A stretch of DNA of 64,000 nt from a virus. Taxonomy: Duplodnaviria; Heunggongvirae; Uroviricota; Caudoviricetes. The stretch lies in the IMG/VR virus record IMGVR_UViG_3300020048_000032, positions 19,147-83,146 of that record; one strand, given 5' to 3'. Position 1 is the first letter of the stretch. Each line of letters opens with the position of its first letter. Below the pieces are notes generated by a model. The model saw only the letters and a list, made by a program, of their open reading frames with translations. It was not told where the DNA came from and searched no databases. The translations under genes and the position numbers were made by a program. This document shows positions 1,158 through 43,943 of this stretch, in pieces.

Positions 1158-1618
1158 CTGTTCTCCTTTATGTTGTCTTCAACAATTTTTTCAAAGTTTG
1201 TATCTATGAAGTAAACCATTTCAAATCCTTGAACATATATTCTTCTTGACATAACCATTACATTATTAGAAGGGATATAATCACAACTTAACTCTGTCTT
1301 AATAGGTTCTTTGTCGGTTGTAGCCATATTCAATTCATTAACGATTTTGTCATATACCTTTTTGTTTACTTCTTCTACTTTTTCACTTTCTTTTACTAAC
1401 TTTTCTAATAGTTCTTCAATTACCTTTTGGCGATATTCAAGCCGCAAACTCATTTCGTATTTATCTGTCCTAAAAAATAATTCGAACGGATTTTTAGATT
1501 GAGAGATAATCTTTTTATCTCTAACATAGCTGTCTTCCTGTTCTCCCATGCGAAGTGATTTATATAGGTCTAATATTTGTTCCTTAGCGTTCATATCATT
1601 TCCTTTCATTATAAGCAC
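1154..1618 (-). CDS. hypothetical protein
   Basis: ORF track (154 aa). Confidence 0.5.
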   Translation of the reverse strand: MLIMKGNDMNAKEQILDLYKSLRMGEQEDSYVRDKKIISQSKNPFELFFRTDKYEMSLRLEYRQKVIEELLEKLVKESEKVEEVNKKVYDKIVNELNMATTDKEPIKTELSCDYIPSNNVMVMSRRIYVQGFEMVYFIDTNFEKIVEDNIKENR

Positions 1619-2022
1619 TTTCTCAATTCATCAAGTGATACTTCTGTGTCAAGTTTGATAAATCGAAACACATTGTAAAATGGTAGCCAAGTAGGTATTG
1701 CGAACTTATTTCTTACATACAAAGAACCGTTAGCGTCAACACCAATAACATCCATATCCTCAAATACATTTCTAACTATCGCCTTTTCATCTTCACTCAA
1801 TGTGTATTTAGGCAAGGGTGTAATTTCGGCATCAAGCAAATCGCTAATAGAAAAATCGTTATATTCCCACTCATCAGTGATACGGTTATAACCTTCAATT
1901 TTAAGTTGCTCACGAATAATTCTATATTTTTTACCAAGATTAAATTCACTGCACATAAATTCTGTTTTTCCTACTTCTATTCCTAAATGTGATAAGAACT
2001 GCTCTGTTGTCATTTTAGGCAT
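1609..2022 (-). CDS. hypothetical protein, paralog family A (N-term TTEQFLSHLGIEV, central EITPLPKYTLSEDEKAIVR, C-term LDELRKCL)
   Basis: Clear sequence similarity to ORFs 21074..21544, 42641..43051, 43051..43473 and 43479..43943. Confidence 0.6.
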   Translation of the reverse strand: MPKMTTEQFLSHLGIEVGKTEFMCSEFNLGKKYRIIREQLKIEGYNRITDEWEYNDFSISDLLDAEITPLPKYTLSEDEKAIVRNVFEDMDVIGVDANGSLYVRNKFAIPTWLPFYNVFRFIKLDTEVSLDELRKCL

Positions 2023-2282
2023 AAGTTCGCCGCCTTTCTTAGTAGGTCATTGTACTCATCAAACAAGGTTTCATAAGTTCTGTCAATCATCATTAAGATT
2101 TCTTTCATCTCTTCTTCTCCGATAATATATTCATTTAACTGGTCTAATCTAATTGCATAGGGCATCTCGTTTACCCTTAACTCTAAAGTTGAGCTAATTT
2201 TAGCAAACTTAAAACAAGTAACAATATCAGTAACATAAATAATCTTCTGGTCCCTTTTACTGAATACTGCAATTTTAGTCAT
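2010..2282 (-). CDS. hypothetical protein
   Basis: ORF track. Confidence 0.5.
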   Translation of the reverse strand: MTKIAVFSKRDQKIIYVTDIVTCFKFAKISSTLELRVNEMPYAIRLDQLNEYIIGEEEMKEILMMIDRTYETLFDEYNDLLRKAANLCLK

Positions 2283-2505
2283 TGTCTAAACTCCTTTGCA
2301 ATTTGAACTTAACATCATTAGGATAAACCCAAGGGTTATTTAGGTTATAATAATTTTCTACATATATAAATCCATTTTCTTCCCAAATCTTACTAACAGG
2401 GTCAATCCACTCATGTTCCGTTCCATCTTCTCTAATTAGGCAAAACTGCATTTGTTCTTCTTGTGTAAACTCCTGTGTCATTATTTCAGTCATGCTGCTC
2501 CTCAC
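2275..2505 (-). CDS. hypothetical protein
   Basis: ORF track. Confidence 0.5.
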   Translation of the reverse strand: MRSSMTEIMTQEFTQEEQMQFCLIREDGTEHEWIDPVSKIWEENGFIYVENYYNLNNPWVYPNDVKFKLQRSLDND

Positions 2506-2686
2506 TTATTTCTAACCATACCAATGAGGCATATAAGATGCTAAAAAGGAATTGTATTATATGACCCCAATTGCCTGTGTTTAAATAAATAGGAATGAAA
2601 CTAATAACAGCCGAAGCTAAACTAAGTAAAAACAGAAATCTAGTCCATACTTTCTCAAAGTGTTTCATTAGTATCCTCCTCATCAA
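2486..2686 (-). CDS. small membrane protein
   Basis: ORF track; two hydrophobic segments. Confidence 0.45.
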   Translation of the reverse strand: MMRRILMKHFEKVWTRFLFLLSLASAVISFIPIYLNTGNWGHIIQFLFSILYASLVWLEISEEQHD

Positions 2687-2930
2687 GAAATGGGAATTGT
2701 AATGCTCTCATAACGTCTTCATGCATTCTCTTTTCAGAAAAGTTAAGTAACCCCAGCTGTTCCTCAAGCTCTAGTAAAACTATTTTTTGCTGCTTAATTT
2801 TATCTAGATGAGACTCTATAGCATCTCTAGACACGTCTAAGTTCTTTCTTAGTTCTAAATAATCTTTCCTTGTCATTTGAAATTCTTTCTTGGAACCTTC
2901 GTAGTGGTCGATAGATTTTTCTGTTGGCAT
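2655..2930 (-). CDS. hypothetical protein
   Basis: ORF track. Confidence 0.5.
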   Translation of the reverse strand: MPTEKSIDHYEGSKKEFQMTRKDYLELRKNLDVSRDAIESHLDKIKQQKIVLLELEEQLGLLNFSEKRMHEDVMRALQFPFLDEEDTNETL

Positions 2931-2948
2931 TTTAATCTCCTTTGTTGT

Positions 2949-3353
2949 TTAACCGAAGTATAAGTTTCTTCTGTGCTTATAACAGTATTCAAACGCTTGA
3001 ATAAAGTCTTGATTAATATAGTATGCAGTACTTCCGTCTAGCGGGTCTAGCTTTAGTTTTATTAACTCATTATAGATTAAGCGACATTCTTTAGGAGTAA
3101 ACATTCCATCGCAGTCGCTGTGCTCCAAGAATACCTTTAGGCCTTCATTTTTTGATAACAAGTCCCAGTAATAATGTTCTTCTGTATACGTGATATCATC
3201 CTGATAAGGAATCGACATTGCCTTCTTATAAATCTCTCCAAGTGTTTTATCATATGCTTTCGCAACAGATAACCTATAGAAATTGAAAGTGCTATAACAG
3301 ATTCTAATATAAGCCTCTATTGCATCATTTTTTGTATAGGTAGCTAACCCCAT
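2949..3353 (-). CDS. hypothetical protein
   Basis: ORF track. Confidence 0.5.
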   Translation of the reverse strand: MGLATYTKNDAIEAYIRICYSTFNFYRLSVAKAYDKTLGEIYKKAMSIPYQDDITYTEEHYYWDLLSKNEGLKVFLEHSDCDGMFTPKECRLIYNELIKLKLDPLDGSTAYYINQDFIQAFEYCYKHRRNLYFG

Positions 3354-3656
3354 TTAGTTCTCCTTTGGCGTGTTTTCTTCCACTAGTTTAAGTGCAAGTT
3401 CATCGAGTTTTTTCTCATAGTTTTTCTTTACTTTGTGTAGCGTCTTTATCATAGCTTTTGCTTCAGGCAAGCCTATAGTAAACTGCCAAGTATCATCTTT
3501 CTGATAGTCTTCCTTCTTTATAATATACAAATTATCTTTTTTAAGCTTCTTAGAATCGCTATATTCCCTGAGCAAGGCTATTTTGCGTTCTGCATCGCTT
3601 ATTAAGCCGTGACAAATCTGCATATGAGTCAAAGTTGCTTTAGATACTGGGTTCAT
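3354..3656 (-). CDS. hypothetical protein
   Basis: ORF track. Confidence 0.5.
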   Translation of the reverse strand: MNPVSKATLTHMQICHGLISDAERKIALLREYSDSKKLKKDNLYIIKKEDYQKDDTWQFTIGLPEAKAMIKTLHKVKKNYEKKLDELALKLVEENTPKEN

Positions 3657-3805
3657 TTTCTTTCTCCTTATAGTTGTCTATTAGTTCTTTTAGTTTCATA
3701 ATCGCTACATCAAACTGCTTATATTCAACAAAAGACAAATCACGCTTATTAAAAAGTTTGCTTACCTTTTCTAACGCTTCTTGATACTCCCTTTTAGTTC
3801 TCATC
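3657..3805 (-). CDS. small protein (about 50 aa), MRTKxEYQEAL family; missing from ORF track
   Basis: ATG at 3803-3805 overlaps the stop of 3794..4102; N-terminus MRTKREYQEALEKV matches ORFs 62503..62817 and 62807..63088. Confidence 0.45.
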
Positions 3806-4102
3806 AATCCACCCTAACTCTTTCATTTGTTGTGTAATTGCTTTTAATGTAGGCATATCAACCCAGCTATATTGCTCTTTATGTTTCTTATCAATATAAC
3901 AAACTTTAAACTCATATGTGAACTTAGATATTGTTAATATACACTCATCCTGTTGATATGCTATGCTTCCATTATTCTCATATGCAAAAGCCCAGCCTAT
4001 CTTCTTAAACATTTCCTTAGCCGATAAAGGTTTATTATCTTCTTCGTTGAATCTTTCAATTATTCTTTCAGCATCATCATAACAACAGCCTTTAGTTTTC
4101 AT
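3794..4102 (-). CDS. hypothetical protein, paralog of 63066..63317 (shared C-terminus ITQQMKELGWIDEN)
   Basis: ORF track; about 40 nt of near-identical DNA at both loci. Confidence 0.55.
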   Translation of the reverse strand: MKTKGCCYDDAERIIERFNEEDNKPLSAKEMFKKIGWAFAYENNGSIAYQQDECILTISKFTYEFKVCYIDKKHKEQYSWVDMPTLKAITQQMKELGWIDEN

Positions 4103-4281
4103 TTGCTCTCCTTGAAAGTTAAGCGTTTTGCGTATTCTTTTTGAGAAATGTGGGCGGGGTTATAAACGGTTGAGGCATCCCGACTAGACGTAATATGAAA
4201 ATTGCTTTTAAAAGACAGAGGGTCTTTCACGCGGTAGGCTTCCTCTTTAGTACAACGTTGCTTTTTCATAATGCGTTTCAT
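4099..4281 (-). CDS. hypothetical protein
   Basis: ORF track; 4-nt overlaps on both sides. Confidence 0.45.
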   Translation of the reverse strand: MKRIMKKQRCTKEEAYRVKDPLSFKSNFHITSSRDASTVYNPAHISQKEYAKRLTFKESK

Positions 4282-4637
4282 TTTAAGTTTAATCCTTGAG
4301 AGGCATGGTCTCTAGCAAGCATAAGCAGCGCACGGTCCGTTATTCCATAACGTCTGAGCTGGCCTTCTCTCGCAATAAGATAAGTAACAATTACTTTCTT
4401 TACTAAGTTGGCAATTACTACCACACCTGTAGTCGTTACTGTATGCAATTCTAATCCCTCGGTGTGACCTGTATCTACGATATAAGAAGAATGCTTCTTA
4501 AATTCACCTAAGGCAAGTGCTGCATCGCGGCGAGTTTTACGATAAGATTCATGAATGGTGTTAACACATTCTAATTCTAAGGCATTTAATTCAGAAGATT
4601 CTTTTACTTCAAATTTTGTTCTAGCTGTTTGTGTCAT
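4278..4637 (-). CDS. hypothetical protein
   Basis: ORF track; AGGAGA RBS; directly downstream of a consensus promoter. Confidence 0.55.
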   Translation of the reverse strand: MTQTARTKFEVKESSELNALELECVNTIHESYRKTRRDAALALGEFKKHSSYIVDTGHTEGLELHTVTTTGVVVIANLVKKVIVTYLIAREGQLRRYGITDRALLMLARDHASQGLNLK

Positions 4638-4653
4638 GTTTATCTCCTAATTC

Positions 4654-4682
4654 ATTATATCATGCTTTTTGACATTTGTAAA
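4654..4682 (-). promoter_or_regulatory. sigma-A-like promoter, minus strand: -35 TTTACA, 17-nt spacer, -10 TATAAT
   Basis: Plus strand reads cATTATAtcatg...TGTAAA; one of five near-identical copies (also 12646, 22285, 24909, 37518). Confidence 0.65.
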
Positions 4683-4685
4683 TAA

Positions 4686-4874
4686 TTATTTATTCTTTGT
4701 ACCAATTGGTTCTAACAAACTTAAGATAGCTTCGTTATGTTCACTTGTAATCTTAGTTGCTACGGAATATTCTAACCCTTCTACTATTTTATACCCAGTA
4801 TAAGTTTCAACAATTATCTTACCGTTCCCTACGTCTGATACTCTCCACAATAATCCATTTAAATATTTATCCAT
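4686..4874 (-). CDS. hypothetical protein
   Basis: ORF track. Confidence 0.45.
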   Translation of the reverse strand: MDKYLNGLLWRVSDVGNGKIIVETYTGYKIVEGLEYSVATKITSEHNEAILSLLEPIGTKNK

Positions 4875-4952
4875 TTGTTCCTGCTTTCTTTAAATAACTC
4901 TCCATTAATATATACTCTTTATCTTAATCCTGAGTTAGAGAAAGCACAGTTG

Positions 4953-5165
4953 TTACTGTGCTTTAATTTCTTCTTCTTCTTTTTCACTTTGCATATATGC
5001 TAACAATATTTGACCCGTAACTACGGAAGACTGCGCCATAGCATCGGCTAATCCTTTTATAATCTCTCCAAATCCGTTAACGGATGATGCTAAACGTGTA
5101 ATTGCCAACCAATAGCCCATTCCGAGCCCCAGGGAGAACAATACTAAACCCGCCAAGTATAACAT
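4953..5165 (-). CDS. small membrane protein
   Basis: ORF track; hydrophobic N-terminal half; stem-loop at its 3' end (4941-4964). Confidence 0.5.
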   Translation of the reverse strand: MLYLAGLVLFSLGLGMGYWLAITRLASSVNGFGEIIKGLADAMAQSSVVTGQILLAYMQSEKEEEEIKAQ

Positions 5166-5371
5166 TACTCTTTAAACCAATGCTTCTCAAACTCAATTAA
5201 ATACTCCTCAAGGCGTTCGTCTTCTATATAGAATAGGTCATCTATCCTATAGGTAGCATGCATGTACTCTTGGAACGCACCAAGCAATTGAATAAATCTC
5301 AAGTCAGGTGATTTCTTCCATAGTCGGCTTAGGGTACGTAATAAATTACTTATTCGCTTAGGGTCACGCAT
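5165..5371 (-). CDS. hypothetical protein
   Basis: ORF track. Confidence 0.5.
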   Translation of the reverse strand: MRDPKRISNLLRTLSRLWKKSPDLRFIQLLGAFQEYMHATYRIDDLFYIEDERLEEYLIEFEKHWFKE

Positions 5372-5757: not shown

Positions 5758-5760
5758 TGT

Positions 5761-5894: not shown

Positions 5895-5902
5895 TTGTCC
5901 TC

Positions 5903-6238: not shown

Positions 6239-6239
6239 A

Positions 6240-7954: not shown

Positions 7955-7968
7955 TTTCTTTCTCCCTC

Positions 7969-8002: not shown

Positions 8003-8006
8003 CAAT

Positions 8007-8096
8007 TGGCGACAGAGGTGAGATTCGAACTCACGGAACAGTTTTGTTCTCCGGGTTTCAAAGCCGGTGCCTTAAACCAGAATCGGCCACTCTGCC
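8007..8096 (-). tRNA. tRNA-Ser(TGA): tRNA-Ser(TGA), class II with long variable arm, CCA encoded
   Basis: Hand fold: acceptor GGCAGAG/CTCTGTC, anticodon loop TTTGAAA, variable arm AGAACAAAACTGTTCC, T-arm GTGAG-TTCGAAT-CTCAC, 3' CCA. Confidence 0.75.
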
Positions 8097-12645: not shown

Positions 12646-12674
12646 ATTATATCATGTATTGCTTATTTTGTAAA
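12646..12674 (-). promoter_or_regulatory. sigma-A-like promoter: -35 TTTACA, 17 nt, -10 TATAAT
   Basis: Conserved cATTATATCATG...TTTGTAAA block on the plus strand. Confidence 0.6.
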
Positions 12675-13681: not shown

Positions 13682-13788
13682 GCCGCCCCAGGGGAATTGA
13701 ACCCACAGACCCTACTATACCACTCCGCCACTAAGGCGGTGCGGAATCGAACCGCTAGTAGACGATACCATCGGGGCGGATTTGGTCA
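13682..13788 (-). ncRNA. tRNA-like segment I could not fold cleanly (two T-arm-like motifs; possible 98-nt long tRNA or two degenerate tRNAs)
   Basis: GCGG-TTCGATT-CCGC and GGG-TTCAATT-CCC motifs; ends CCGCCCC...GGGGCGG could pair as an acceptor stem. Confidence 0.3.
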
Positions 13789-13862
13789 TGCTACGCAGAA
13801 TTGAACTGCGATTGGTAGGATGAAAACCTACTGTCCTTCCATTAAACGATAGCACGATGAGA
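13789..13862 (-). tRNA. tRNA-Glu(TTC): tRNA-Glu(TTC), CCA encoded
   Basis: Hand fold: acceptor CGTGCTA/TAGCATG, D-stem GTTT/GGAC, anticodon arm GTAGG-TTTTCAT-CCTAC, T-arm CGCAG-TTCAATT-CTGCG, A-CCA. Confidence 0.7.
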
Positions 13863-13917
13863 ATGTCTTTTCGTGAAGGCTAGGCATACAGAACCTTAAT
13901 TACATTATATCACAATT

Positions 13918-14718
13918 TTATTCTTTTGTAAACTCTTCTTCTATACTTTTTTTAACTATCTGTTTAATTAGGTCATTTACTTTATAGAGAGTAGTACCTT
14001 CAATTGGATAAAGGACTTCCTGTTCTTGCTTTTCCCTCTTCAACTTTTCAATTAAATATTTTGCAGCTTCTTCTGCCTCGTCTAAAGTTAACTTACCTAC
14101 CTTAATGTCCAGCATACTATCACGCGCTGGGCCTTCTGAAAACCACAGGCTGTTTGTAAAGCTTATTCCCATTACTAGTCTATCCATCATGTGAGATAAT
14201 CTTGCAATGTGATGTAGCTGCTTTGGGTCATAGCCAAACTTTTCTATTTTCTCGAGCGTGGCTGGATACGGATGCTTCAGGGCCTTCTGTTTCTCTAAGG
14301 CCATACCATATATACATTTTATTAAAAGTGCCTTACGGTCGCTTACAATGTCCGGTAGGAAGTCTCTAATTTGTTTCCATTCATCTGAATAATCAGTAAC
14401 GAAAATATTACTGGCTAGGAGTTCCAAGTAACTCGGATTCGCTTTAGCCAGTAACTCTTCTAACAACCTAACATCTTTGATTTCTACTTGGCCCCAATCT
14501 GTCTTAATAACTTTTGAGACCATTTTATTAGTATAAATATCATCGAAGTCTGGCAAGACAAAAGCCTTGCAATCAATATCAGAGGAGTAGTCTGGACTGT
14601 AGATATCTAAATTATAGTTCTGAGACCCGTGTAAAACTATTACGAATACTTTGTACCCGTCTGCTTTTAAGTCACATGTGACCTTGGCTAGAACGCCTAT
14701 AATTTCTTTCTTATTCAT
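13918..14718 (-). CDS. Pol-beta superfamily nucleotidyltransferase (RNA-repair-associated type; possible CCA/tRNA nucleotidyltransferase role)
   Basis: Motif LHGSQNYNLDIYSPDYSSDIDCKAF (hG[GS]...DxD); class-2 promoter upstream. Confidence 0.45.
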   Translation of the reverse strand: MNKKEIIGVLAKVTCDLKADGYKVFVIVLHGSQNYNLDIYSPDYSSDIDCKAFVLPDFDDIYTNKMVSKVIKTDWGQVEIKDVRLLEELLAKANPSYLELLASNIFVTDYSDEWKQIRDFLPDIVSDRKALLIKCIYGMALEKQKALKHPYPATLEKIEKFGYDPKQLHHIARLSHMMDRLVMGISFTNSLWFSEGPARDSMLDIKVGKLTLDEAEEAAKYLIEKLKREKQEQEVLYPIEGTTLYKVNDLIKQIVKKSIEEEFTKE

Positions 14719-17643: not shown

Positions 17644-19191
17644 TATTAATGTAGGCGTTCCAATCCTACTTCCGTCGCTGGCTTACTCAATCCTATAAGA
17701 GTTACCTTGGCGTTATCGACGAACCTTTCGGGTGTTTCCCAACTCCTGGATGGTTATCCGATTCTGTCGCATACTGGCATATGCATTGAACTTTGTTACA
17801 TACTCTCCATATGTAGTCCAACTAGAGACTCTTTTTTCGTAAAGAAAGAGCCTTAAACGTTAAAATGGTCTGGATTATTTATCACTATTCTAGCATGGCG
17901 CTAGCGCCATGCCGCCATACAGGGGCGGAGGGAGCCAATGTCGAACCTTACTCTATCCATCATTCGAGTTCGTGGCATCGGGAATTTTAGCTCTACCCGT
18001 AAGAGTACTAGTTATAGGTTTATCGTCTCCAGACCGACTAGATAGCATACTATCATCTGACCTAGTTTCCGTCTCATAGGCTGACAGTGAATACTTACGT
18101 TTCACATGAAAGGATTGCTCCCTTATTCTGGTTGATTACGAGCCATAACTCGCTTTCGCCCGCGCATTTACGAGCCCTAGGTTGCTGGTTTAGCGACACG
18201 GCTTGTCGGATAGTCTGTGGATTGTGGCCACATTCTCATCATGATGGTGTATGCACTCTCCCTTTAAACTCAAGCTTCATGAGTACCATCACTAATACCG
18301 TTCTCTTTGGCACACGGTAACACTGTGCGATTGGCAATACCGCCTATTTCACTGTCGTCGGGTAAGCAACGTATAGTTCTTAAGGAACCACAAATTAAAT
18401 CGCGATTAATCTGCAGTCCCTCATCCCGCTCATACGTCAGGATTGCCACAGCGAACTATAAAGTCTTATCTTCTAGTGGTATCTATACGAAGATATCGTG
18501 GTGTAGATTTTGTTTACGTGTTCCTCGCGAGTCTACGCTTTTTTGTCCTACAAACACTAGCCTTATTCTGTAGCTTAACATAATACGCTTCTTAGGGCGT
18601 CAAATTTGCTCCCTTTTCTGGAAGACTTTCGCTCGTTTTTGAGACCATACTCACATGGTTAGTGAGAACTAATAGACCTTGCGAGGTTATAGTATTGGCC
18701 ATAGAGTGAGCATTTTTATAACTTGCTCAGGTTAACACATTTTATATATACCCCGTACTAGATAGAGGAGCTGCCCTTGATGTTACTCCAGGGAAACAGC
18801 AGTGTATTGGTAGTTTTTAGACGTGTCCGGTCTTGTATATTACCACATAGTGGTTTATACCAATTTAGGTACCAACTGTCGGACTTGCACCGACATCCCC
18901 CGTGGTCATCGCCCATATTGAGTGGACGACTACTGACAGGGCCTCTGCTAATTGATAAGTAGGTTGGTATAATGATGGTTCCGCCTGCGGTTTTACGCAT
19001 ACTGTAGCGACGCCTATTGAAGGTCGTTAGTCTTCTGTCTCTGGATTAACAGTCCAGTATGTTACTTTACACTATTTAGGTTTTTCAAGTGGCGAAACCG
19101 TGAAGTAGTAAATGGATTTTGTCGAGAGGTTTGCTCCGGAGCTACTCAGTTTTGTTCCATTTCACGCGGCCATTATAACGACCGCATATTA

Positions 19192-19867: not shown

Positions 19868-21058
19868 TTAGTCTTGTGCTTTATAATTAAATAACGTTTT
19901 AAGATGTGTTACTACTTCATATTGCTCAGACACCAACTTCTTAATTTCTTCCGCTGGTTTATATGCATCTGGTGCTTCATCCAAAGTACTTTCATTTACA
20001 GAAGCTGACCAAATGTCTTTCATAGTTTCTTTGAAGTCTTCTACGTTCAAGGTTTTCTTAGCAGTAGACCTGCTCATGGTTCTACCCGCACCATGGGGCG
20101 CAGAATTGTTCCAGGTGAGGTTTTCTTTACCCTGGCATATTAACGTGCCGTCTCTCATATTAAGAGGAACCAGGAATAACCCCGAGGCTCTAATAGCACC
20201 CTTACGAAGAATCATTTCATTGAAATCAATATAGTTATGTACTGATTCAATTTTTTGTCCGACTATCCAACCCATTTTATTAAAAATAGTTTCAGCAATC
20301 ATTCTTCTATTTTTGTAAGCAAACATCTGCGCAATCTCCAAATCATTAAGGTAAGCACCCATTTCAGTTCCTGTTAAAAACGCTAAGTCTTTACTTTGGT
20401 TTAATTCATCTTCGTGAGCTTCCTTATAAGCTTTAACTTCTCTTTCAATTTCTTGAGCTTTGCCTTCTACTTTTAATCTTGCGATTAATGCCTGTACTCC
20501 AGAATTCTTAACTAAGTCTTCTGCTTTATCTTGATGATGACGCGCTACCTGTAAGCCCAGGTTTCTCGAACCTGTATGGATAATCAAGTAATGATTTGTC
20601 CCATCCGATTCAACAGAAATAAAGTGGTTTCCTCCTCCAAGAGTACCCATAGAACATTTAATTCTACTTGCTGTCTTCGCGGGCAAAGGAGTAGATAATC
20701 CAGCTAATAAGAATCCTACATCAAAATTCTCTACTTCGTGTACCTGCATTCCTGATGGTATGTAATTGTTTATTACGGATTGTAGCTGTTCAAAATCAAT
20801 ATCCTGGGCAGGAATCTTATATGCAACTACACCACAGCCAATATCAACACCAATTAAATTTGGTACAATACGGTCTGTAATAGTCATAGTTGTTCCAATA
20901 ACACAACCAGCTCCTGCATGGACATCTGGCATAATAACAATATTTGAATTCAAAGAAGCAGGGTGACTAATAAGTCTTGCAATTTGTGCAATGGCCTCTT
21001 GCTCAATGTTATCAGTTGTAACTAATGCATTAGCGTATTTTCCTTTTAGTTCAAACAT
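19868..21058 (-). CDS. rtcB: RtcB-family RNA ligase (3'-phosphate/5'-hydroxyl)
   Basis: 396 aa; GGNHF motif, metal-binding His/Cys pattern, C-terminal NSAPHGAGR. Confidence 0.85.
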   Translation of the reverse strand: MFELKGKYANALVTTDNIEQEAIAQIARLISHPASLNSNIVIMPDVHAGAGCVIGTTMTITDRIVPNLIGVDIGCGVVAYKIPAQDIDFEQLQSVINNYIPSGMQVHEVENFDVGFLLAGLSTPLPAKTASRIKCSMGTLGGGNHFISVESDGTNHYLIIHTGSRNLGLQVARHHQDKAEDLVKNSGVQALIARLKVEGKAQEIEREVKAYKEAHEDELNQSKDLAFLTGTEMGAYLNDLEIAQMFAYKNRRMIAETIFNKMGWIVGQKIESVHNYIDFNEMILRKGAIRASGLFLVPLNMRDGTLICQGKENLTWNNSAPHGAGRTMSRSTAKKTLNVEDFKETMKDIWSASVNESTLDEAPDAYKPAEEIKKLVSEQYEVVTHLKTLFNYKAQD

Positions 21059-21073
21059 GTTGCCCTCTTTCTT

Positions 21074-21544
21074 TTATAGACACTTTCTCAAGTCACTAAT
21101 TAATATACAGTCTCCCTCTTTAATAAATGTGAACAGACTATCCTTAAAATAAAGGGGTTGCACTCTTTCATTTTCTTTAAGTAGACAAAGTGTAATATAT
21201 CCACCAAAAATAGTATTTACATTCCTTCTTGCAATACAATACCCGCTTGGAGTATCAAATGATTTAATAATTACCTTCTCGTCTTCTGTTAAGGTATATC
21301 TAGGCAGCAGCCTAATCTCCTCATTCATAAGTAAGCTTACTGATTCCCAATATGAAACATAAGGACCATCCCAGTTATAATTTACCCTAATAGTACCAAT
21401 ATCCCCAATTTCTAAAATGGTTATAATGCCGTGGTCTCCGCATTCGAATGGTACATTAAGTGTTATTCCAAGAGAATCTATAAAGTCTTTTGTTGTCATC
21501 AGTCGCATATGTGGACTCCTTTGTTTTTTAAGTTTAATACACAT
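21074..21544 (-). CDS. hypothetical protein, paralog family A
   Basis: MTTKDFIDSLGI...YTLTEDEKVIIKS...ISDLRKCL. Confidence 0.55.
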   Translation of the reverse strand: MCIKLKKQRSPHMRLMTTKDFIDSLGITLNVPFECGDHGIITILEIGDIGTIRVNYNWDGPYVSYWESVSLLMNEEIRLLPRYTLTEDEKVIIKSFDTPSGYCIARRNVNTIFGGYITLCLLKENERVQPLYFKDSLFTFIKEGDCILISDLRKCL

Positions 21545-21873
21545 TCATTTAAATATTGAGTAGTATGTTCACAGTATATTGGATGCCAGTATGGTATCAC
21601 TAATGCGGTGCTTAAGCTAAGCATGGGTGCGGTCTTGCCGCGATAACGACTATCTTCCCAAACAGGGTCTACATTATAACCACGTCGTTCCATTTCTTGC
21701 ATAACTAATCTATGGTATCCAACTAAGCAACCATAATCATGTTCAAATACGTAATTAACTGTTGCATGAGGTTTACCCCATCCATTTCCACGAAGTGCAC
21801 AGCATTCACGATGCTGACCTAACAGCTGTTGTCGTGGTAACTTAGTAATTAAATCTTGGTGCCAAAGTCTCAT
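21499..21873 (-). CDS. pyrimidine-dimer DNA glycosylase (T4 endonuclease V / DenV-like)
   Basis: N-terminus [29 protein letters not shown] parallels T4 DenV [45 protein letters not shown] segment also matches. Confidence 0.5.
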   Translation of the reverse strand: [124 protein letters not shown]

Positions 21874-22284: not shown

Positions 22285-22313
22285 ATTATATCATATTTTA
22301 GTTACTTTGTAAA
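22285..22313 (-). promoter_or_regulatory. sigma-A-like promoter: TTTACA, 17 nt, TATAAT
   Basis: Conserved block. Confidence 0.6.
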
Positions 22314-22329: not shown

Positions 22330-22403
22330 TGGCGGGAACACTAGGAATTGAACCCAGGTCAGTGAGGTTGGAGCTCACGATTTTGCCACTAAACTATATT
22401 CCC
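22330..22403 (-). tRNA. tRNA-Trp(CCA): tRNA-Trp(CCA)
   Basis: Hand fold: acceptor GGGAATA/TGTTCCC, anticodon arm GTGAG-CTCCAAC-CTCAC, T-arm CTGGG-TTCAATT-CCTAG, G-CCA. Confidence 0.8.
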
Positions 22404-22404
22404 A

Positions 22405-22479
22405 TGGTTGCTCGGAAGGGATTCGAACCCTCGACCTCCGGGGTATGAACCCGACACGCTACCGCTGCGCTACCCAGCT
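22405..22479 (-). tRNA. tRNA-fMet(CAT): tRNA-Met(CAT), initiator-like (three G:C pairs in anticodon stem; 1:72 mismatch)
   Basis: D-arm GCGC-AGCGGTA-GCGT; anticodon arm TCGGG-TTCATAC-CCCGG; T-arm GAGGG-TTCGAAT-CCCTT; ...CCGAGCA-A-CCA; acceptor has an A1 x A72 mismatch. Confidence 0.6.
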
Positions 22480-22646
22480 ATAAATTAAATTGTCGGAAAG
22501 GTTAGATTGGTTACTAACACTCGTTGCTATTCCCTACTCCCCCGTAGTGGGCATATCTTCGATATACCTGGTTCACCTCGGCAGAGGGTTATATTCACAA
22601 CATCCCTCCCATGAGGGTGCGCTTGATTTATCGCTACTTTCCGATA

Positions 22647-22722
22647 TGGTGCCCTCTCGGTGAATCGAACACCGATTTGATGCTTACAAGGCATCTGTAA
22701 TAGCCTTTATACATAAGAGGGC
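22647..22722 (-). tRNA. tRNA-Thr(TGT): tRNA-Thr(TGT)
   Basis: Acceptor GCCCTCT/AGAGGGC; D-stem TGTA/TACA; anticodon arm GATGC-CTTGTAA-GCATC; T-arm CGGTG-TTCGATT-CACCG; A-CCA. Confidence 0.75.
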
Positions 22723-22727
22723 ATTTA

Positions 22728-23147
22728 CTACATATGCTTATCTGAATATTTTTTACGACCTACTCTACCATTTCCCATGTTTAGACTCCGGTAAGTTGAA
22801 GTTAAACTGTGACAATTAGGACACAACAATGTTAGATTATCCTCTGACATATTGTCATGATGTCCATCGATGTGCTCTACTTCCAAAGGTATTCTACCTG
22901 TAGTATGATTTATCTGATGCCACCCACACTGTGCACATTGACTGTCATACTTCTCGAATAGGTATCTCCTAACATGGCTAGATATTGAATATTCACCTGC
23001 TGCACCACTGACCGCTCCGATTTTCCACTTATCAATAAAACTCTTATATTGATAATTAAGTTGACACTTTTGTGAGCAGTATTTAGTTGCTCTGTGTTTG
23101 TATATTAATTCTTTTCCACAATGTATACAATGCTTTTCTTTCCTCAT
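22728..23147 (-). CDS. HNH homing endonuclease with N-terminal zinc ribbon
   Basis: CIHCGK...CSQKC; EVEHIDGHHDN...CPNCH (HNH motif); sits inside the tRNA cluster. Confidence 0.7.
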   Translation of the reverse strand: MRKEKHCIHCGKELIYKHRATKYCSQKCQLNYQYKSFIDKWKIGAVSGAAGEYSISSHVRRYLFEKYDSQCAQCGWHQINHTTGRIPLEVEHIDGHHDNMSEDNLTLLCPNCHSLTSTYRSLNMGNGRVGRKKYSDKHM

Positions 23148-23174
23148 TACTCATCCTTTCTAAGGTGTTCGGAT

Positions 23175-23203
23175 GTAAGCCCCAGATGAGGGGGCTTACT
23201 TTT
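23175..23203 (+). terminator. strong GC stem-loop followed by a T-run on the plus strand
   Basis: GTAAGCCCC-agatgag-GGGGCTTAC-TTTT. Confidence 0.35.
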
Positions 23204-23381
23204 ACCTATATAATACTTGCAAATATTATACAGAACCATTAAATCTTATTGCCCTCAGTAAGTGTGCATTGTTAAGAGGCATCTGAGGTACTGTCAATAC
23301 TGAGCAACCAGCGGGACTTTAACCCACATTCTCCACACAATCACACGTGTGCCATTCTAATTAAAATATGGTTGCATAAGT

Positions 23382-23460
23382 TGGACGAGGAAGGAGTTGA
23401 ACCTTCATACCTAAACTTGTTAACTGAGCACTCAACGCTTTACCCTTAAGCTACTCGTCC
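23382..23460 (-). ncRNA. tRNA-like gene with aberrant anticodon arm (pseudo-tRNA or non-canonical tRNA)
   Basis: Perfect acceptor GGACGAG/CTCGTCC, D-arm GCTT-AAGGGTA-AAGC and T-arm GAAGG-TTCAACT-CCTTC, but I found no 5-bp/7-nt anticodon stem-loop. Confidence 0.35.
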
Positions 23461-23590
23461 ATATGATGCCTGTTGTTTAAACAGGGAGGCATCACCCTAT
23501 GCCACAATTGTTACTGACGGAATGTGGGAAACCAATGTCATGAATCATCAGTTTAATTAGGAGATGAAACTGATAAAGAACCTTAAAATT

Positions 23591-23677
23591 TGGTGAGTTA
23601 GGTAGGATTCGAACCTACGAACCCGTTCAGGGGACAGAGTTACAGTCTGCCTGCTTTAACCACTTGCATACTAACCC
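23591..23677 (-). tRNA. tRNA-Tyr(GTA): tRNA-Tyr(GTA), class II
   Basis: Acceptor GGGTTAG/CTAACTC; anticodon arm GCAGA-CTGTAAC-TCTGT; variable arm hairpin CCC-TGAAC-GGG; T-arm GTAGG-TTCGAAT-CCTAC; A-CCA. Confidence 0.75.
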
Positions 23678-23678
23678 A

Positions 23679-23755
23679 TGGTGGACCATGTAGGACTTGA
23701 ACCTACAACCAACCGGTTATGAGCCGGGAGCTCTGCCAATTGAGCTAATGGTCCA
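23679..23755 (-). tRNA. tRNA-Met/Ile(CAT): tRNA-Met(CAT) elongator type, or tRNA-Ile(CAT, lysidine)
   Basis: Acceptor GGACCAT/ATGGTCC; D-arm GCTC-AATTGGCA-GAGC; anticodon loop CTCATAA; T-arm GTAGG-TTCAAGT-CCTAC; A-CCA. Confidence 0.7.
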
Positions 23756-24908: not shown

Positions 24909-24937
24909 CATTATATCATACAATTTAATATTTGTAA
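24909..24937 (-). promoter_or_regulatory. sigma-A-like promoter: TTTACA, 17 nt, TATAAT
   Basis: Conserved block; followed by an approximately 85-nt leader containing a 10-bp stem (CGGCCGGATA...TATCTGGCCG). Confidence 0.6.
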
Positions 24938-24941
24938 ACAA

Positions 24942-29760: not shown

Positions 29761-31440
29761 CTATTTCAGTTCTACTAATACAGAGTTTTCTGTACTAACA
29801 AATAATGATATGGCCGATACTGCGTTTTCTAAAACTGATTTTGCAACTAGGTACGGGTCATATACTTTACAATCTTCTTTATCTAATACTTCTAATTTCA
29901 TTGTGTCTAGATTAATATACAGTATAGTACTTTCTAGTTTTTTGTGATTCATGCCCTCTGCTGTCTTTACAAGCTCTTCATAATTTACTAAGCCGCTATT
30001 CATTGGGATAAGCTGGAAGGGTAATCGTAATGAATCCATCAGTAATAAGAATCCGATATATTCATTTGGACGATTCGCTTTCATATCTGAAATTTCTTGA
30101 GCATAGTTTTTCAAAAGCCAGTAGTACGCTTTGAAGTAGGTATACCCTCCTCCAATAACAACACCTTCTTTGCTTGCGGCATGAGTTGCTAGAACTGCAT
30201 CATCATATTTTAACTTACGTTCTGTGCGTTCAATGTCGGTTACTCCGCCTACTTCTATAGTAACTGCAATGCCATTCAACTTAGAAATACGCACAGCCAA
30301 GTTTGCAAAATCTCCTGCTTGACCTTCGTCCGTCATATTCCCTTGTGTTTCTTTTAGCAATGCAATATGGTCTTCAACTGCTTTTTTATTTTCTAGAGTA
30401 TCTTGTGCCACAACATAAGTAATCTTTTTACTCGCTTTAATATTCTTAGCATGTCCCACTGCATTTACTAAATCATTGATGTCTAGTTTTGAGACTTGCG
30501 CTGAGATAATCTTTGCACCCGTAATTATGCTTAAATCTTGGAATGTACCCATATGGTCAACTGTTTGTGGAACTTCAACTGGAATAATCGGTACGCTTAT
30601 TTTATCAGTTCTCATAAACCAATTGTAATGAATAACTTTAAGTGCTTCTCCGTCTAACTTGTTACATAATACAATAAGAGGTGTATCGTAAGTAAGGCCA
30701 TGACGTTTAATTAACGCTGCGTAGGTATTGATAATTGCCGACGCATCTTCCGTTGTCATAATCATCCTGTCTAAAATTAGAACTAAGGGGTCAATACAAT
30801 CAATAGGTTTATTTGAGAACATTTCTTGATTTGCAAACCCACCGGTAAACTCATACCCATTTGAATAGTTTACTGCATCTTCGCTATTCCTAGAAAGACG
30901 AATATTAACCAATCCATCTGGACCAAGTTTATCTCGTAGCTCTCCAACAATCTTACCAATTTCTTTTGAACCAGATGAGCTCTCTGCAATATTAATAAGA
31001 ATGTCTTTAGTCACGTCTTTGTTTACTACGCTTTTGAGATATTCTAGAATTAAATCCTTTGCGCGATTTATACCTTTTCTAACAAGCACCGGATTTGATA
31101 ATTCCTTCTGCTTCATTAACTCAATATACTTTGAAATCACACTGGCTGCAATAAGATATGTACTTGTTGTACCGTCTCCTACATCCTCCTCTGTTTTCTT
31201 TGAGGAGGTATAGACTAGTTTTGCTCCAAGCAGCTCTAGGTCTGAAAGCGTGCTCAATGCGAACTCAACTACTCTTACCCCATCATCTGTAAGCAACGGC
31301 TGACTTCGTTCCGCTCGGGTGTCCATAATGGCTACATTGCGACCATACGGACCTAAGGTACATCTGACAATATCTGCTACCTTCTGTACCCCTTCATTCA
31401 TTTGTATTTGTGTTTCTGGATTCTTAATAAGTGATTTCAT
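29761..31440 (-). CDS. groEL-like: GroEL/Cpn60-family chaperonin
   Basis: VRCTLGPYGRNVAI matches GroEL VKVTLGPKGRNVVL; EEDVGDGTTSTYLIAASVI matches ANDAAGDGTTTATVLAQAI; NPVLVRKGINRA matches NPMDLKRGIDKA. Confidence 0.8.
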   Translation of the reverse strand: MKSLIKNPETQIQMNEGVQKVADIVRCTLGPYGRNVAIMDTRAERSQPLLTDDGVRVVEFALSTLSDLELLGAKLVYTSSKKTEEDVGDGTTSTYLIAASVISKYIELMKQKELSNPVLVRKGINRAKDLILEYLKSVVNKDVTKDILINIAESSSGSKEIGKIVGELRDKLGPDGLVNIRLSRNSEDAVNYSNGYEFTGGFANQEMFSNKPIDCIDPLVLILDRMIMTTEDASAIINTYAALIKRHGLTYDTPLIVLCNKLDGEALKVIHYNWFMRTDKISVPIIPVEVPQTVDHMGTFQDLSIITGAKIISAQVSKLDINDLVNAVGHAKNIKASKKITYVVAQDTLENKKAVEDHIALLKETQGNMTDEGQAGDFANLAVRISKLNGIAVTIEVGGVTDIERTERKLKYDDAVLATHAASKEGVVIGGGYTYFKAYYWLLKNYAQEISDMKANRPNEYIGFLLLMDSLRLPFQLIPMNSGLVNYEELVKTAEGMNHKKLESTILYINLDTMKLEVLDKEDCKVYDPYLVAKSVLENAVSAISLFVSTENSVLVELK

Positions 31441-36952: not shown

Positions 36953-36954
36953 TG

Positions 36955-37485: not shown

Positions 37486-37517
37486 GGGTTTCTCCTTGGC
37501 GTTTCTCGCTCTTAAAC

Positions 37518-37546
37518 ATTATATCATGGATTCAATTATTTGTAAA
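37518..37546 (-). promoter_or_regulatory. sigma-A-like promoter: TTTACA, 17 nt, TATAAT
   Basis: Conserved block. Confidence 0.6.
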
Positions 37547-37555
37547 CAATTATTT

Positions 37556-41016: not shown

Positions 41017-41174
41017 CTTTATCCTCCGTATCCTGAACAGGTATTATAACATTGAAGCAGCAAGCGTCAGTACCTTCAAGAGCTTCTATTTCTATTCTAT
41101 AGTCTATCTTCCGCTTAGTAAGCATATGAACAGTCGATGCTAATGACTCTAAATTATATACCTTCTTAACTATG

Positions 41175-41390
41175 CTACTCATTTGAGTCCTCTGATGTAA
41201 ATATAATCATAATCTTAGGATAAGGTTTATCTTCCCAGTCCAGCTCATCAATTTGTATTACACTTATTAGATTAAAGTTAATATTATGATTAATATACTC
41301 GCGATACTTGTATTCTGACTTATCATTACTATTCAACCAGTTGAGAGCATCATCTATATCATCAAATACTATCTTCTTGTAAGCTTTCAT
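41175..41390 (-). CDS. hypothetical protein
   Basis: ORF track. Confidence 0.45.
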   Translation of the reverse strand: MKAYKKIVFDDIDDALNWLNSNDKSEYKYREYINHNINFNLISVIQIDELDWEDKPYPKIMIIFTSEDSNE

Positions 41391-42460
41391 TCGGCACCTC
41401 CGGTAATATAATCACTAAGCAGCATCGCTTCCATTTCTTTTCTGGACATTGGTAACTTTGCATCCTGAACTGTTTTTATAAAGCCCATAAGAATTTCTAC
41501 AGGGGTTGATGTTAATCTAATGTTTGTAACTGAGCCATCAACATTATTTATCTTTTTGTTTTCTTTTGCATTGCTTACAATAATAGAAGAAAGTATTTTT
41601 GAGTTTTCTTTCATATACTTGTCGAGCAATAAGCGTATTTCTGGTTTTGCTTCGTTCATACATTGTATTCTTAAATAAAAATTATTGGGCAGAAGTAACA
41701 AGTCTTCAATTCCTTTTTTAACCTGTAACAGGTCGCTAGACTCTATAGTGAAGTATAGTACGGCATATGGGTTAGGAATTCTTGTAACATCGCCAGTCTC
41801 TGTATCAATTAAGATTGCGGAAGGCAAACCTTTTGCATAGTCATCTCCTAGACCATTACCGATAAAAGAACCCGTATTCATTACAATACCTAGCTGGTCT
41901 GGAATATGGATATGTCCATTAAAAACTACTTCAAAGTAATCTTTAAGTATTACCGGGTCGAACCCACTTGTACAAAATATATTTCTTGCATACTGTGTTC
42001 CAACAATATCTACATGACTAAATAAAATTTTATTTCTCAATGCCTCTAAGGTTTCTAAATTTATCTCTGACGTATAAGGTAGAAAAGATACCTCATTAAT
42101 TTTTAATGGAGTATCAATAACTGTTACGTTTGAATAATTACGAAGGATAGCTAAAGCGTTTGTTGCTGTGTCTTTTCTATCATGATTGCCTACCAAAACA
42201 TACTCTGGGATATTCGTAGTATTTTTTGCAAAGGACTCTTCTATCGCGTGTGCTTCCCTTGCCATAATCATTGGCTTATCTAGCAAGTCTCCCCCATGAA
42301 CAATAAGGTCCACATTATAGTTTCTCGCCTGTTCATAAAACCAAGCAAAAGACTCGATAATTAAATCAAGCCGAGTACTATATTTAGAATTTCGTCTAGC
42401 CTCATTAGATAAGGAGCCAAGCTCTTTAAAATGCGGGTCTGTTTCAAATAGTATTTTCAT
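41387..42460 (-). CDS. sbcD: SbcD/Mre11-like nuclease (gp47-like)
   Basis: Phosphoesterase motifs DPHF, HGGDLLD, GNHDR, GHIH. Confidence 0.75.
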   Translation of the reverse strand: MKILFETDPHFKELGSLSNEARRNSKYSTRLDLIIESFAWFYEQARNYNVDLIVHGGDLLDKPMIMAREAHAIEESFAKNTTNIPEYVLVGNHDRKDTATNALAILRNYSNVTVIDTPLKINEVSFLPYTSEINLETLEALRNKILFSHVDIVGTQYARNIFCTSGFDPVILKDYFEVVFNGHIHIPDQLGIVMNTGSFIGNGLGDDYAKGLPSAILIDTETGDVTRIPNPYAVLYFTIESSDLLQVKKGIEDLLLLPNNFYLRIQCMNEAKPEIRLLLDKYMKENSKILSSIIVSNAKENKKINNVDGSVTNIRLTSTPVEILMGFIKTVQDAKLPMSRKEMEAMLLSDYITGGAE

Positions 42461-42461
42461 G

Positions 42462-42650
42462 TTACCTGCTTTCCAGTAATCTTTTTAATTCATCAATAAT
42501 AGCTTCATTAACTTGATGCGTATCTTTTAATGTATAATAGAATGTAGATACACCTTGTCTGCTCAATATTCGATTTAATACAGCTTGCTCTGTAACTTTA
42601 GATTTAAATAATCTAGTAAGGGTAGCTCTCATCCATAAAGTCATAGACAC
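42462..42650 (-). CDS. hypothetical protein
   Basis: ORF track. Confidence 0.45.
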   Translation of the reverse strand: MSMTLWMRATLTRLFKSKVTEQAVLNRILSRQGVSTFYYTLKDTHQVNEAIIDELKRLLESR

Positions 42651-43051
42651 TTCCTTAATTCATCGAGAGGTATTTCGCTGCCTTTATCCATAAAAGCAAA
42701 CATTTCGTGAAAGACCATAAATGATGTTCTGTCACCACCTTTTTCAAGTAGTACTAACCCCCAATCATCAGTTCTTCTTAGTGCTTTGTATCTTGGGTCC
42801 TTAATGCTTCTAATTATTGCCTTCTCGTCTTCCGTCAATGTGTATTTAGGGAGTGGTGTGATTTCTTCATCGAGCAAATCTTTAATATCACTTGCAGACT
42901 TTAACCATTTTTGAAAAATATCTGAATATAATTCCAGAACATATGATTTCGATATTCTGTATTTTGTGGAACAATCTCCGCTCCAAGTGAACTCTCGCTC
43001 TACTTCTATTCCAAGATGCGATAAGAACTGCTCTGTTGTTATTTTGCTCAT
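42641..43051 (-). CDS. hypothetical protein, paralog family A
   Basis: MSKITTEQFLSHLGIEV...EITPLPKYTLTEDEKAIIRS...LDELRKCL. Confidence 0.6.
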   Translation of the reverse strand: MSKITTEQFLSHLGIEVEREFTWSGDCSTKYRISKSYVLELYSDIFQKWLKSASDIKDLLDEEITPLPKYTLTEDEKAIIRSIKDPRYKALRRTDDWGLVLLEKGGDRTSFMVFHEMFAFMDKGSEIPLDELRKCL

Positions 43052-43473
43052 TACATGTACCTCTTTAAGTCGTGGATACGGACTCTTTCACCACATCTAA
43101 TACAATTAAATACGTTTGCAAGTGGGAATAAAACGAGTTCTTCCTCGTCTTTCATACCTGCGAATCTAACAATGAATAAATCTACACCATTAGGACTTCG
43201 CTCAATACAATCATTGCTACAGTAACCCTCCAGTAACTTGGTAAGGATAACCTTATCCGCGTCTGATAGAATATATTTTATTATCTCACAATCAAGTAAG
43301 CTCCCTAAGTTATCTTCGCTTTCCGCCCAAGATTTTTTAATCGGATTGAAATAATGTAATGTAACTGGATTTTCTGTAACCTTAATCTTTCTAGTAAATC
43401 CGTTAGGATATCTGCAATTAAACTCTGCACCTATTCTTATTCCAAGATGGTCTAGGAATTCTTGTGTTGTCAT
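43051..43473 (-). CDS. hypothetical protein, paralog family A (divergent)
   Basis: MTTQEFLDHLGIRIG...IHDLKRYM. Confidence 0.55.
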   Translation of the reverse strand: MTTQEFLDHLGIRIGAEFNCRYPNGFTRKIKVTENPVTLHYFNPIKKSWAESEDNLGSLLDCEIIKYILSDADKVILTKLLEGYCSNDCIERSPNGVDLFIVRFAGMKDEEELVLFPLANVFNCIRCGERVRIHDLKRYM

Positions 43474-43478
43474 TTTGT

Positions 43479-43943
43479 TTATAAACCCTTTCTCAATTCA
43501 TCAAGTGATACAGGTTCGTCATTTTCCCACTGTATGAAATTGAATACATTTACGAACATTTTCATATACAGATAATTACCATCGTTAGAACTCCAATCAA
43601 GAGATTGTTTACTTGCCTTAAATGGTTTTTCTGTGCAGACAAACAATCCGTAAATCTTATCTCTGACAATCCACTTATATTCTTTTGAAATACATCTTAC
43701 TATTGCCTTTTCGTCTTCAGTAAGTTTGTACTGAGGTACCGACTTAATTTCTTTGCCTAGCAGCCAACTAAGAGGGTATGCAGTATCAGTCCACCCTAAA
43801 TCGTAGTGGTGCTTTGTCCAAATCATAATATTATATTTTTCATCAACGGCAAATAGGTCATCATCAACCTTAAAAGGTTTCCATATAGTTATTCTCAATT
43901 GTTCTAAGAATTGCTCTGCTGTCATTTTACCCATTGTCTTCAC
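43479..43943 (-). CDS. hypothetical protein, paralog family A
   Basis: MTAEQFLEQL...KSVPQYKLTEDEKAIVRC...LDELRKGL. Confidence 0.55.
   Translation of the reverse strand: MKTMGKMTAEQFLEQLRITIWKPFKVDDDLFAVDEKYNIMIWTKHHYDLGWTDTAYPLSWLLGKEIKSVPQYKLTEDEKAIVRCISKEYKWIVRDKIYGLFVCTEKPFKASKQSLDWSSNDGNYLYMKMFVNVFNFIQWENDEPVSLDELRKGL

Follow-up and report, generated by a model that had tools for sequence, protein, structure and literature searches.

How does a phage come to hold several diverged copies of one small protein, and what might these copies do for it? The question is raised by a 64,000-nucleotide stretch of a virus of the Caudoviricetes (IMG/VR record IMGVR_UViG_3300020048_000032, positions 19,147 to 83,146), hereafter the window, in which a sequence-only reading had noticed five homologous open reading frames (ORFs), three of them in tandem. 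Here, we show by profile searches, structure prediction and DNA comparison with related loci that, as far as sequences can tell, these genes encode two-module proteins whose modules are exchanged among paralogues and between unrelated phages via recombination at conserved motifs.

Two modules and three motifs

All five ORFs are present where that reading had placed them, all on the minus strand, and p43479, p43051, and p42641 indeed form a tandem trio (Table 1). All-against-all BLASTP gives full-length alignments (E 4.6e-06 to 3e-31, 24–44% identity), the pair p43051/p43479 being joined only via the other members and the family profile. A hidden Markov model (HMM) of the five members, run against 522 six-frame ORFs of the window, recovers exactly these five (E ~1e-56 to 1e-59), with the next-best ORF at E 0.24. 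The ORFs are small, as had been described, although the lower bound of the reported size range of 137–156 aa has to be moved to 136 aa. Two starts are likely to differ from those first assigned, based on the position of the ribosome-binding site, the family alignment, and database gene calls: p21074 likely begins at 21508 rather than 21544, with AAAGGAG 7 nt 5' of the ATG and a database gene call (P0001) of 144 aa, and p43479 likely begins at the ATG at 43934 rather than the GTG at 43943. The most divergent copy is p43051, in which the aligned linker lacks TPLP. A further ORF at one end of the window covers positions 74–141 of the wide-family profile, that is, the entire N-terminal module (N-module).

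The proteins of this family span ~125–160 aa and are mildly acidic (pI 4.8–5.7, family median 5.0). The three shared motifs that had been pointed out are found in the alignment and alternate with two variable cores, V1 and V2. Expressed as mean pairwise identity among 36 close relatives, C1 (MKMTTEQFLSHLGIEVGKPF) reaches 60%, V1 12%, C2 (DLLDxEITPLPKYTLTEDEKAIVR) 62%, V2 16%, and C3 (VSLDELRKCL) 68%. Three columns of the 36-protein alignment are invariant (Y73, L75, and L133), invariant and near-invariant residues are mostly hydrophobic or helical, and no catalytic-type residue constellation is conserved. The AlphaFold2 model of p1609 consists of two modules (pLDDT 89.3), and a pTM of 0.59 is what two domains of uncertain relative orientation would give. 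In this model the N-module comprises a helix (6–12), four strands forming a β-meander, a short helix (59–62) and a final strand (67–69); the N-terminal helix, which carries the motif TEQFLSHLGI, belongs to the folded module at high model confidence. The motif C2 forms the junction to the C-terminal module (C-module), a small α/β domain with a helix (77–85), several strands, and a C-terminal helix, in which C3 makes up the last strand and helix; the C-module of p43479 modeled alone reaches pLDDT 91.2 and pTM 0.82 (88 sequences). The similarity is not confined to low-complexity segments, an alternative that had been raised beforehand; both halves yield confident folded models. The conserved helices and termini may be viewed as the framework of the modules, and the hypervariable β-regions between the motifs as specificity surfaces. 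The proteins are probably non-enzymatic, because catalytic-type conservation is lacking and no family library matches them. The two halves are alike in the order of their secondary-structure elements and in their helix motifs; an internal duplication was considered but is not supported by sequence, as hhalign of the half-profiles gave a best E of 0.11 over one column.

How are the modules combined? Among 257 collected family members, 164 have the N–C arrangement found in the window, 64 join an unrelated N-terminus to the C-module, 14 add an extra domain to N–C, and 11 consist of the C-module alone. Single cases are C–C, the N-module alone, the C-module plus an extra domain, and five N-modules in a row (P0100, a metagenomic protein of 381 aa that lacks a C-module). 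From these architectures the modules are shown, at the level of sequence, to be separate evolutionary units that stand alone, are repeated, or are joined to other domains. An additional SH3/Tudor-like N-terminal segment is seen in P0063, P0080, P0086, and P0122; in P0063 and P0122 it matches PcrA_UvrD_tudor just below Pfam thresholds, and in P0063 also CarD_TRCF_RID. We do not take these fused domains as a clue to function, since the PcrA/UvrD-Tudor or CarD-RID-like match (E 5.9e-05) falls short of the gathering score and would be too weak a basis for proposing RNA polymerase binding.

The family has no name. No member matches Pfam, NCBIfam, PADLOC models, or PDB sequences, PHROGs are matched solely in families without function, and no source goes beyond "hypothetical protein"; an exact-sequence look-up of P0002 gave no record. 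A search with the five-member alignment against 5.8 billion proteins returned only the 36 close relatives, all metagenomic and all unnamed, and when 1.84 billion cluster representatives were searched exhaustively with HMMER, the wider family grew to 521 relatives at E <= 0.001. A pattern scan of IMG/VR and 185,579 reference genomes (GTDB) gave no confirmed relatives of the close family, and three loci in JGI metagenomes hold one copy apiece. The close N–C family with its three near-invariant motifs is found only in metagenomes, and relatives in cultured phages share the C-module only: these are Clostridium innocuum phages Amboise and Maintenon and Thomasclavelia ramosa phages TR-TP1 and TR-TP2. 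A 176-kb human-faecal phage likewise has C-module relatives only. In the window, p43479 matches phrog_22292 over its C-module (E 2.5e-12, residues 69–151); the other four members have no PHROG match at E <= 0.01 and are tied in through the family profile. Of 125 wider-family proteins, 77 match phrog_22292 (best E 4.8e-23) and 23 match phrog_1972; neither PHROG entry carries a function, and the cultured carriers of such relatives are gut Firmicutes phages. The C-module relative of TR-TP1/TR-TP2 (XPO98185.1; L008, 4878–5324) is annotated as "putative ankyrin repeat protein L23", a label for which we found no support and which looks like an annotation artefact. The wider-family member P0359 lies on ENA metagenome scaffolds (L012/L013, 6001–6447) in a small integrative element, flanked by a tyrosine integrase and a rolling-circle replication protein (Rep_trans), with the chromosomal genes LytB, Band_7, and NfeD adjoining; the superfamily is therefore not confined to virulent phages.

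This phage stands out by copy number. Another full member, P0022, lies on the same 148,196-bp contig outside the window, and a 2.4-kb copy of its region (L001) shows a second tandem cluster of four family genes with P0022 as the last, including a 68-aa gene with the N-module only and a gene in which a different N-terminus is joined to the C-module. The family is thus expanded to roughly ten copies, five full and one half in the window and four elsewhere. Other contigs have one or two copies each; roughly ten are exceptional.

Module exchange at conserved motifs

The sequence-only reading had spoken of a diversifying multi-copy family, and this is borne out, with diversity arising as the two modules are shuffled at the conserved motifs. 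Identities in V1 and V2 are uncorrelated across the 36 close relatives (r = -0.06, 630 pairs), and all 10 pairs with at least 60% identity in one variable core have at most 27% in the other. For p1609, the best match of V1 is P0007 (97%) and that of V2 is P0008 (98%), two different proteins from distinct genomic backgrounds. Comparison at the DNA level locates the breakpoints. The locus L009 is 96.3% identical to p1609 over 246 nt that begin immediately behind the start codon and reach the end of C2, with a nearly identical V1 and with differences that are synonymous and concentrated in C2; V2 is then unrelated, the last 35 nt are 94% identical, and the flanks are unrelated. The reciprocal case is L010, where V2 (99%), C3 (95%), and C2 (88%) agree with p1609, while V1 (38%, random level) and the flanks (31–40%) are unrelated. 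Both patterns therefore place a crossover in the linker encoding ITPLP (~15 nt), where the two structural modules meet; the outer crossover boundaries are the start and stop codons. More diverged combinations are seen as well: P0006 has a V1 like p42641 (50%) and a V2 like p43479 (71%), V2 is 71% identical between P0004 and P0006, and P0009 and P0019, both from ENA assemblies, are 86% identical in V2 and 22% in V1.

We also considered that the genes could be targets of a diversity-generating retroelement. This was rejected because the variable cores differ throughout and with indels, at a mean DNA column identity of 58%. Whether related loci were compared with the window by BLASTN or the copies were aligned as DNA, similarity was confined to the conserved motifs, and no reverse transcriptase was found among the window proteins scanned, a scan that covered part of the ORFs.

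Why are the motifs so well conserved? We compared how often window paralogues use the same codon at identical residues with the expectation from codon usage. In C2 the same codon is used in 44% of cases versus 42% expected. Synonymous sites in the central motif are thus saturated, from which we conclude that it is held by selection on the protein and that a DNA-level repeat is ruled out as the cause. For C1 and C3 the values are 71% versus 40% and 59% versus 39%, respectively, so that the gene ends also carry nucleotide-level conservation, and there a DNA-level repeat is part of the cause. One reason for the extra identity in C3 is that in tandem arrays the Shine-Dalgarno (SD) sequence of the next gene lies within the C3 ELRK codons (GAA TTG AGA AAG G) and the start codon overlaps the preceding stop codon. 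For example, the SD of p42641 (AAAGAGG) sits within the C3 codons of p43051, and its start overlaps the p43051 stop (TAATG). Recombination at the gene ends would add to the nucleotide identity of both C1 and C3.

Modular exchange as a route to diversity is known from other phage accessory proteins. In the gp38 adhesin of T2/T6-type phages, conserved glycine-rich motifs form a structural core between interchangeable hypervariable segments (PMC3157838), and the same interleaving of short motifs with interchangeable segments is seen here. However, gp38 is a single-copy protein of the tail-fibre tip with a known role in receptor binding, whereas the present family is multi-copy and cytoplasmic by context, is unrelated to gp38 in sequence and fold, and exchanges entire domains. 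PeSLs are short conserved borders of small non-essential genes in the hyperplastic regions of T4-type phages, where they serve as recombination sites that move ORFs from phage to phage (PMC2839356). The window resembles these regions in having repeated strong σ70-type promoters among small genes, but the junctions mapped here fall on translation-initiation regions and coding motifs (start codon, ITPLP linker, and stop codon) and not on promoter/terminator cassettes, and recombination also takes place within the gene, between two domains. What is new is the unnamed family itself, without a solved structure and with a C-module that has no known fold relative.

Possible functions of the family

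What are the shuffled proteins for? The sequence-only reading had suggested host-takeover or anti-defence effectors with different targets. The data are consistent with that suggestion (small acidic proteins, no conserved catalytic-type residues, two loci 3' of strong host-type promoters, and cassette exchange across unrelated phages), and the function is inferred rather than demonstrated. Our own preference, which we hold tentatively, is that the family constitutes a recombining panel of binders directed at variable targets in the host, for which defence components are the most plausible candidates. The phage would keep these two-module proteins as binders with different specificities, express them from host-type promoters along with its replication and repair genes, and use them to neutralise variable host components, either defence proteins or their signals, much as fused sponge or inhibitor domains do. 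This preference is based on the small size, the lack of an enzyme signature, the host-type promoters, and the fast turnover, together with modules that stand alone or fused, as known sponge domains do, which are found singly or fused in pairs (PMC12265669), and with a faint resemblance of the N-module to Tad2. In several other phages, DNA methyltransferase or MazG/NTP-pyrophosphohydrolase-type genes lie near family genes. By analogy, the order of elements in Tad2, the sponge-like fusion, and these nearby genes would form a weak link to counter-defence.

Tad2, an anti-Thoeris sponge of the DUF2829 (PF11195) family, to which AcrIIA7 also belongs, is a homotetramer that sequesters gcADPR or related signals. 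Its published topology consists of α1 followed by antiparallel β1–β5, with a short helix ahead of β5, and the N-module has its elements in the same order, a comparison made by element order alone; Tad2 has no counterpart of the C-module. A distant fold relationship between the N-module and Tad2 is possible. Membership of the N-module in DUF2829 is not established by the profile comparisons.

Several observations weigh against a panel of host-directed binders. The DUF2829 model (PF11195) is not matched by the five window proteins at E <= 1 or by 125 relatives at E <= 0.01. When 103 N-module segments were compared by hhalign with DUF2829 proteins of up to 110 aa, drawn from 120 PF11195 proteins, the result was not significant (P 0.064, probability 0.9%, 25 columns), with those 25 columns aligned in the expected register (W..S.SDLLD.EI on W.pS.SDiLAEDWxIV); the C-module gave P 0.29. 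All solved Tad2 and AcrIIA7 sequences carry GWNGKG/N, yet this pocket loop has no counterpart here, and the equivalent region is the hypervariable V1, which speaks against a conserved pocket for small molecules. Neither experiments nor significant homology connect the family with any function. The neighbors are mostly replication and repair genes, with which a role in DNA metabolism is compatible, and hypervariability could reflect relaxed constraint on surface loops instead of selection for new targets. Finally, the chimeric contigs used for breakpoint mapping (L009–L011) are k-mer assemblies, in which motif-seeded chimeric assembly is possible. The pairs that are discordant yet diverged (P0009/P0019 and P0004/P0006), however, cannot be assembly artefacts. 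A DNA-mimic function was considered too and set aside, since the proteins are merely mildly acidic and nothing specific supports it.

A more elaborate version of the binder panel can be pictured, which we consider unlikely. A Tad2-like N-module could be paired with a C-module of a fold absent from the PDB; each module could exist in many specificity variants, with three junction motifs as the sites of their reassortment, both within a phage and from one phage to another; these motifs could serve at once as framework, as recombination sites and, at the 3' end, as ribosome-binding sites; and the roughly ten copies in this phage could be a broad-spectrum panel. Together these parts would amount to a combinatorial repertoire of counter-defence binders.

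The best of the rivals, in our estimate an improbable one, is that the proteins assist phage DNA replication, recombination, or repair as accessory factors. They could be adaptors, for instance, whose motifs attach to one shared partner, such as SSB, a clamp, a nuclease, or a helicase, the variable cores being a tolerated surface. Such a role would sit well with the replication and repair genes nearby.

Could the genes instead be largely selfish or near-neutral recombination cassettes, of little benefit to the phage, whose ends and linker persist mainly by promoting their spread through homologous recombination? Nucleotide conservation above expectation at both gene ends speaks for this, as do gene-boundary sequences of 29–60 nt that are 86–100% identical between otherwise unrelated phages, also around neighboring small genes. 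The insertion sites differ and lie between unrelated conserved genes, and boundary-mediated shuffling is known from the PeSLs of T4-type phages (PMC2839356). Nevertheless, the central motif is conserved at saturated synonymous sites and hence under protein-level selection, both modules give confident compact folds, all ORFs are intact, the family is maintained across 521 cluster representatives, and the unit contains neither a nuclease nor a recombinase to drive mobility. We regard this cassette explanation as rather less probable still than the adaptor role.

The internal proteins of T4 show polymorphism and act against host defence, and the T4 capsid-targeting sequence reads MKTYQEFIAE, to which the MK(M)TTEQF of the family is only loosely similar. 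That the proteins are packaged in the virion and injected like these, with the conserved N-terminus as a capsid-targeting or processing signal, agrees with the T4-type portal of the window, but is very improbable because the same N-terminal motif occurs in ~36 kb siphophage-like contigs with different morphogenesis genes, a wider-family member sits in an integrative element, the N-terminal helix is folded into the N-module, the central and C-terminal motifs would be left without explanation, and the genes lie in early/middle-type units away from structural genes. The probability left over from the binder panel and these three rivals belongs to other functions.

Genomic setting and neighboring families

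The window has a G+C content of 36.5% and nearly all of its genes on one strand. Among them are genes for a family A DNA polymerase, SbcC, SbcD, a DnaB-type helicase, and a DEAD-box helicase, and also for a T4-type portal, a pyrimidine-dimer glycosylase, and RtcB. No close relative of this genome was found among GenBank phages; the SbcD proteins of Listeria phage LIS04 and Bacillus phage SP-15 match its own at ~32% identity. Elsewhere, family genes in siphophage-like contigs lie amid small accessory ORFs, 3' of replication genes and 5' of the terminase; one follows a Holliday-junction resolvase, and another is part of a long small-ORF block of a large phage.

The coding strand has seven strong promoters of the type TTTACA-N17-TG(A)TATAAT, of which six are exact pattern matches versus zero expected and the seventh came from a consensus scan. 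The repeated promoter has an extended -10 element (AATAATTGTTTACAAA-N12-TATGATATAATG). The copy 5' of the DNA polymerase is the nearest one upstream of the tandem trio and may drive it, judging from co-orientation and tight gene packing. As these are extended -10 promoters of the σA/σ70 type, a Firmicutes-like host RNA polymerase would be expected to transcribe much of the region.

Eight tRNA genes are present, six of them clustered just upstream of the promoter that heads the unit of p21074. One, called with a four-base anticodon (gctc) and with no amino acid assigned, may be either a frameshift-suppressor-like tRNA or an artefact of the prediction. Just downstream of this cluster lies the tightly packed unit in which p21074 is flanked by the pyrimidine-dimer DNA glycosylase (Pyr_excise, E 1.8e-25) and the RtcB-like ORF. 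The combination of RtcB and tRNAs hints that the phage may counter host anticodon nucleases by repairing tRNAs. The window also encodes a GroEL-like chaperonin (Cpn60_TCP1, E 2.9e-33), which is uncommon in phages.

Table 1. Positions of family members, promoters and other features in the window and in related contigs
Feature	Contig	Position	Strand	Remarks
p1609	window	1609..2022	-	full N-C member, 137 aa; HMM E 5e-59
p21074	window	21074..21508	-	full N-C member, 144 aa; HMM E 1e-59
p42641	window	42641..43051	-	full N-C member, 136 aa, third gene of tandem trio; HMM E 1.5e-57
p43051	window	43051..43473	-	full N-C member, 140 aa; HMM E 4e-56
p43479	window	43479..43934	-	full N-C member, 151 aa; HMM E 1.8e-57
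N-module-only relative	window	63662..63868	-	68 aa (MPTRTFTNENLLQAMGLQVKSEI...DLLDEPYEI); wide-family HMM E 5.6e-05
Promoter TTTACA-N17-TGATATAAT	window	22285..22313	-	heads unit of small ORF, glycosylase, p21074, RtcB
Promoter, same type	window	4654..4682	-	heads small-ORF run ending in p1609
Promoter	window	50406..50434	-	11/12 consensus matches, TG extension; 5' of DNA polymerase, small ORFs, tandem trio
Promoter, same type	window	12646-12674	-	
Promoter, same type	window	13904-13932	-	
Promoter, same type	window	24910-24938	-	
Promoter, same type	window	37518-37546	-	
Promoter, same type	L001	~150-200		
tRNA genes	window	22330-23754	-	
tRNA genes	window	8007-8096; 13783-13856		
tRNA with four-base anticodon	window	23380-23461		
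Glycosylase and RtcB-like ORF around p21074	window	19868-21873	-	
GroEL-like chaperonin	window	29761-31440	-	
MNAKE initiation region	window	1580-1609	-	
MNAKE initiation region	L004	3564-3592		
MNAKE initiation region	L005	3425-3454		
MNAKE initiation region	L010	1096-1124		
AKEMFxKLG family	window	63066-63317; 3794-4102	-	
AKEMFxKLG family	L004	~3576-3830		
AKEMFxKLG family	L005	~3437-3670		
MRTK family	window	3640-3807; 62807-63088; 62503-62817	-	
MRTK family	L002	1460-1771		
MRTK family	L009	3375-3716		

Conserved boundaries are also seen in small genes next to the family. Four phage contigs with no other relationship have in common, at 100% identity, a translation-initiation region of 29–30 nt (TGAAAGGAAATGATATGAACGCTAAGGAA, comprising an SD and the codons for MNAKE), beyond which their coding sequences immediately diverge; conserved boundaries around variable cores therefore look general in the accessory region and not peculiar to the N–C family. 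A second small multi-copy family has a conserved N-terminus (...AKEMFxKLG(W/Y)...), a conserved C-terminus (...LAITQQMKELGWIDEN), and a variable middle, and its stop overlaps the start of the following gene. In a third one, only the N-terminus M(R/K)TKxEYQxAL is conserved and the rest is variable. Neither family has a Pfam match. The order of an N–C family gene, an MNAKE gene, and an MRTK gene recurs at ~63.9–62.5 kb and 4.1–3.6 kb of the window and in L004 and L005.

In conclusion, whatever the function of these proteins, they provide a clean case of intragenic modular exchange between unrelated phages, with an unusually clear mechanism in which cassettes of whole domains are swapped at short conserved junctions, in a family of 521 cluster representatives that has no Pfam entry and a C-module without a solved relative. 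The natural chimeras are a ready set for mapping specificity to modules, and the phage with roughly ten copies offers a starting point for anti-defence screening. If the role as binders holds, this unnamed superfamily would be a means by which phages of gut Firmicutes and mobile elements meet variable host targets, and if the combinatorial repertoire were real as well, domain shuffling would be a route to new anti-defence specificities for these phages.

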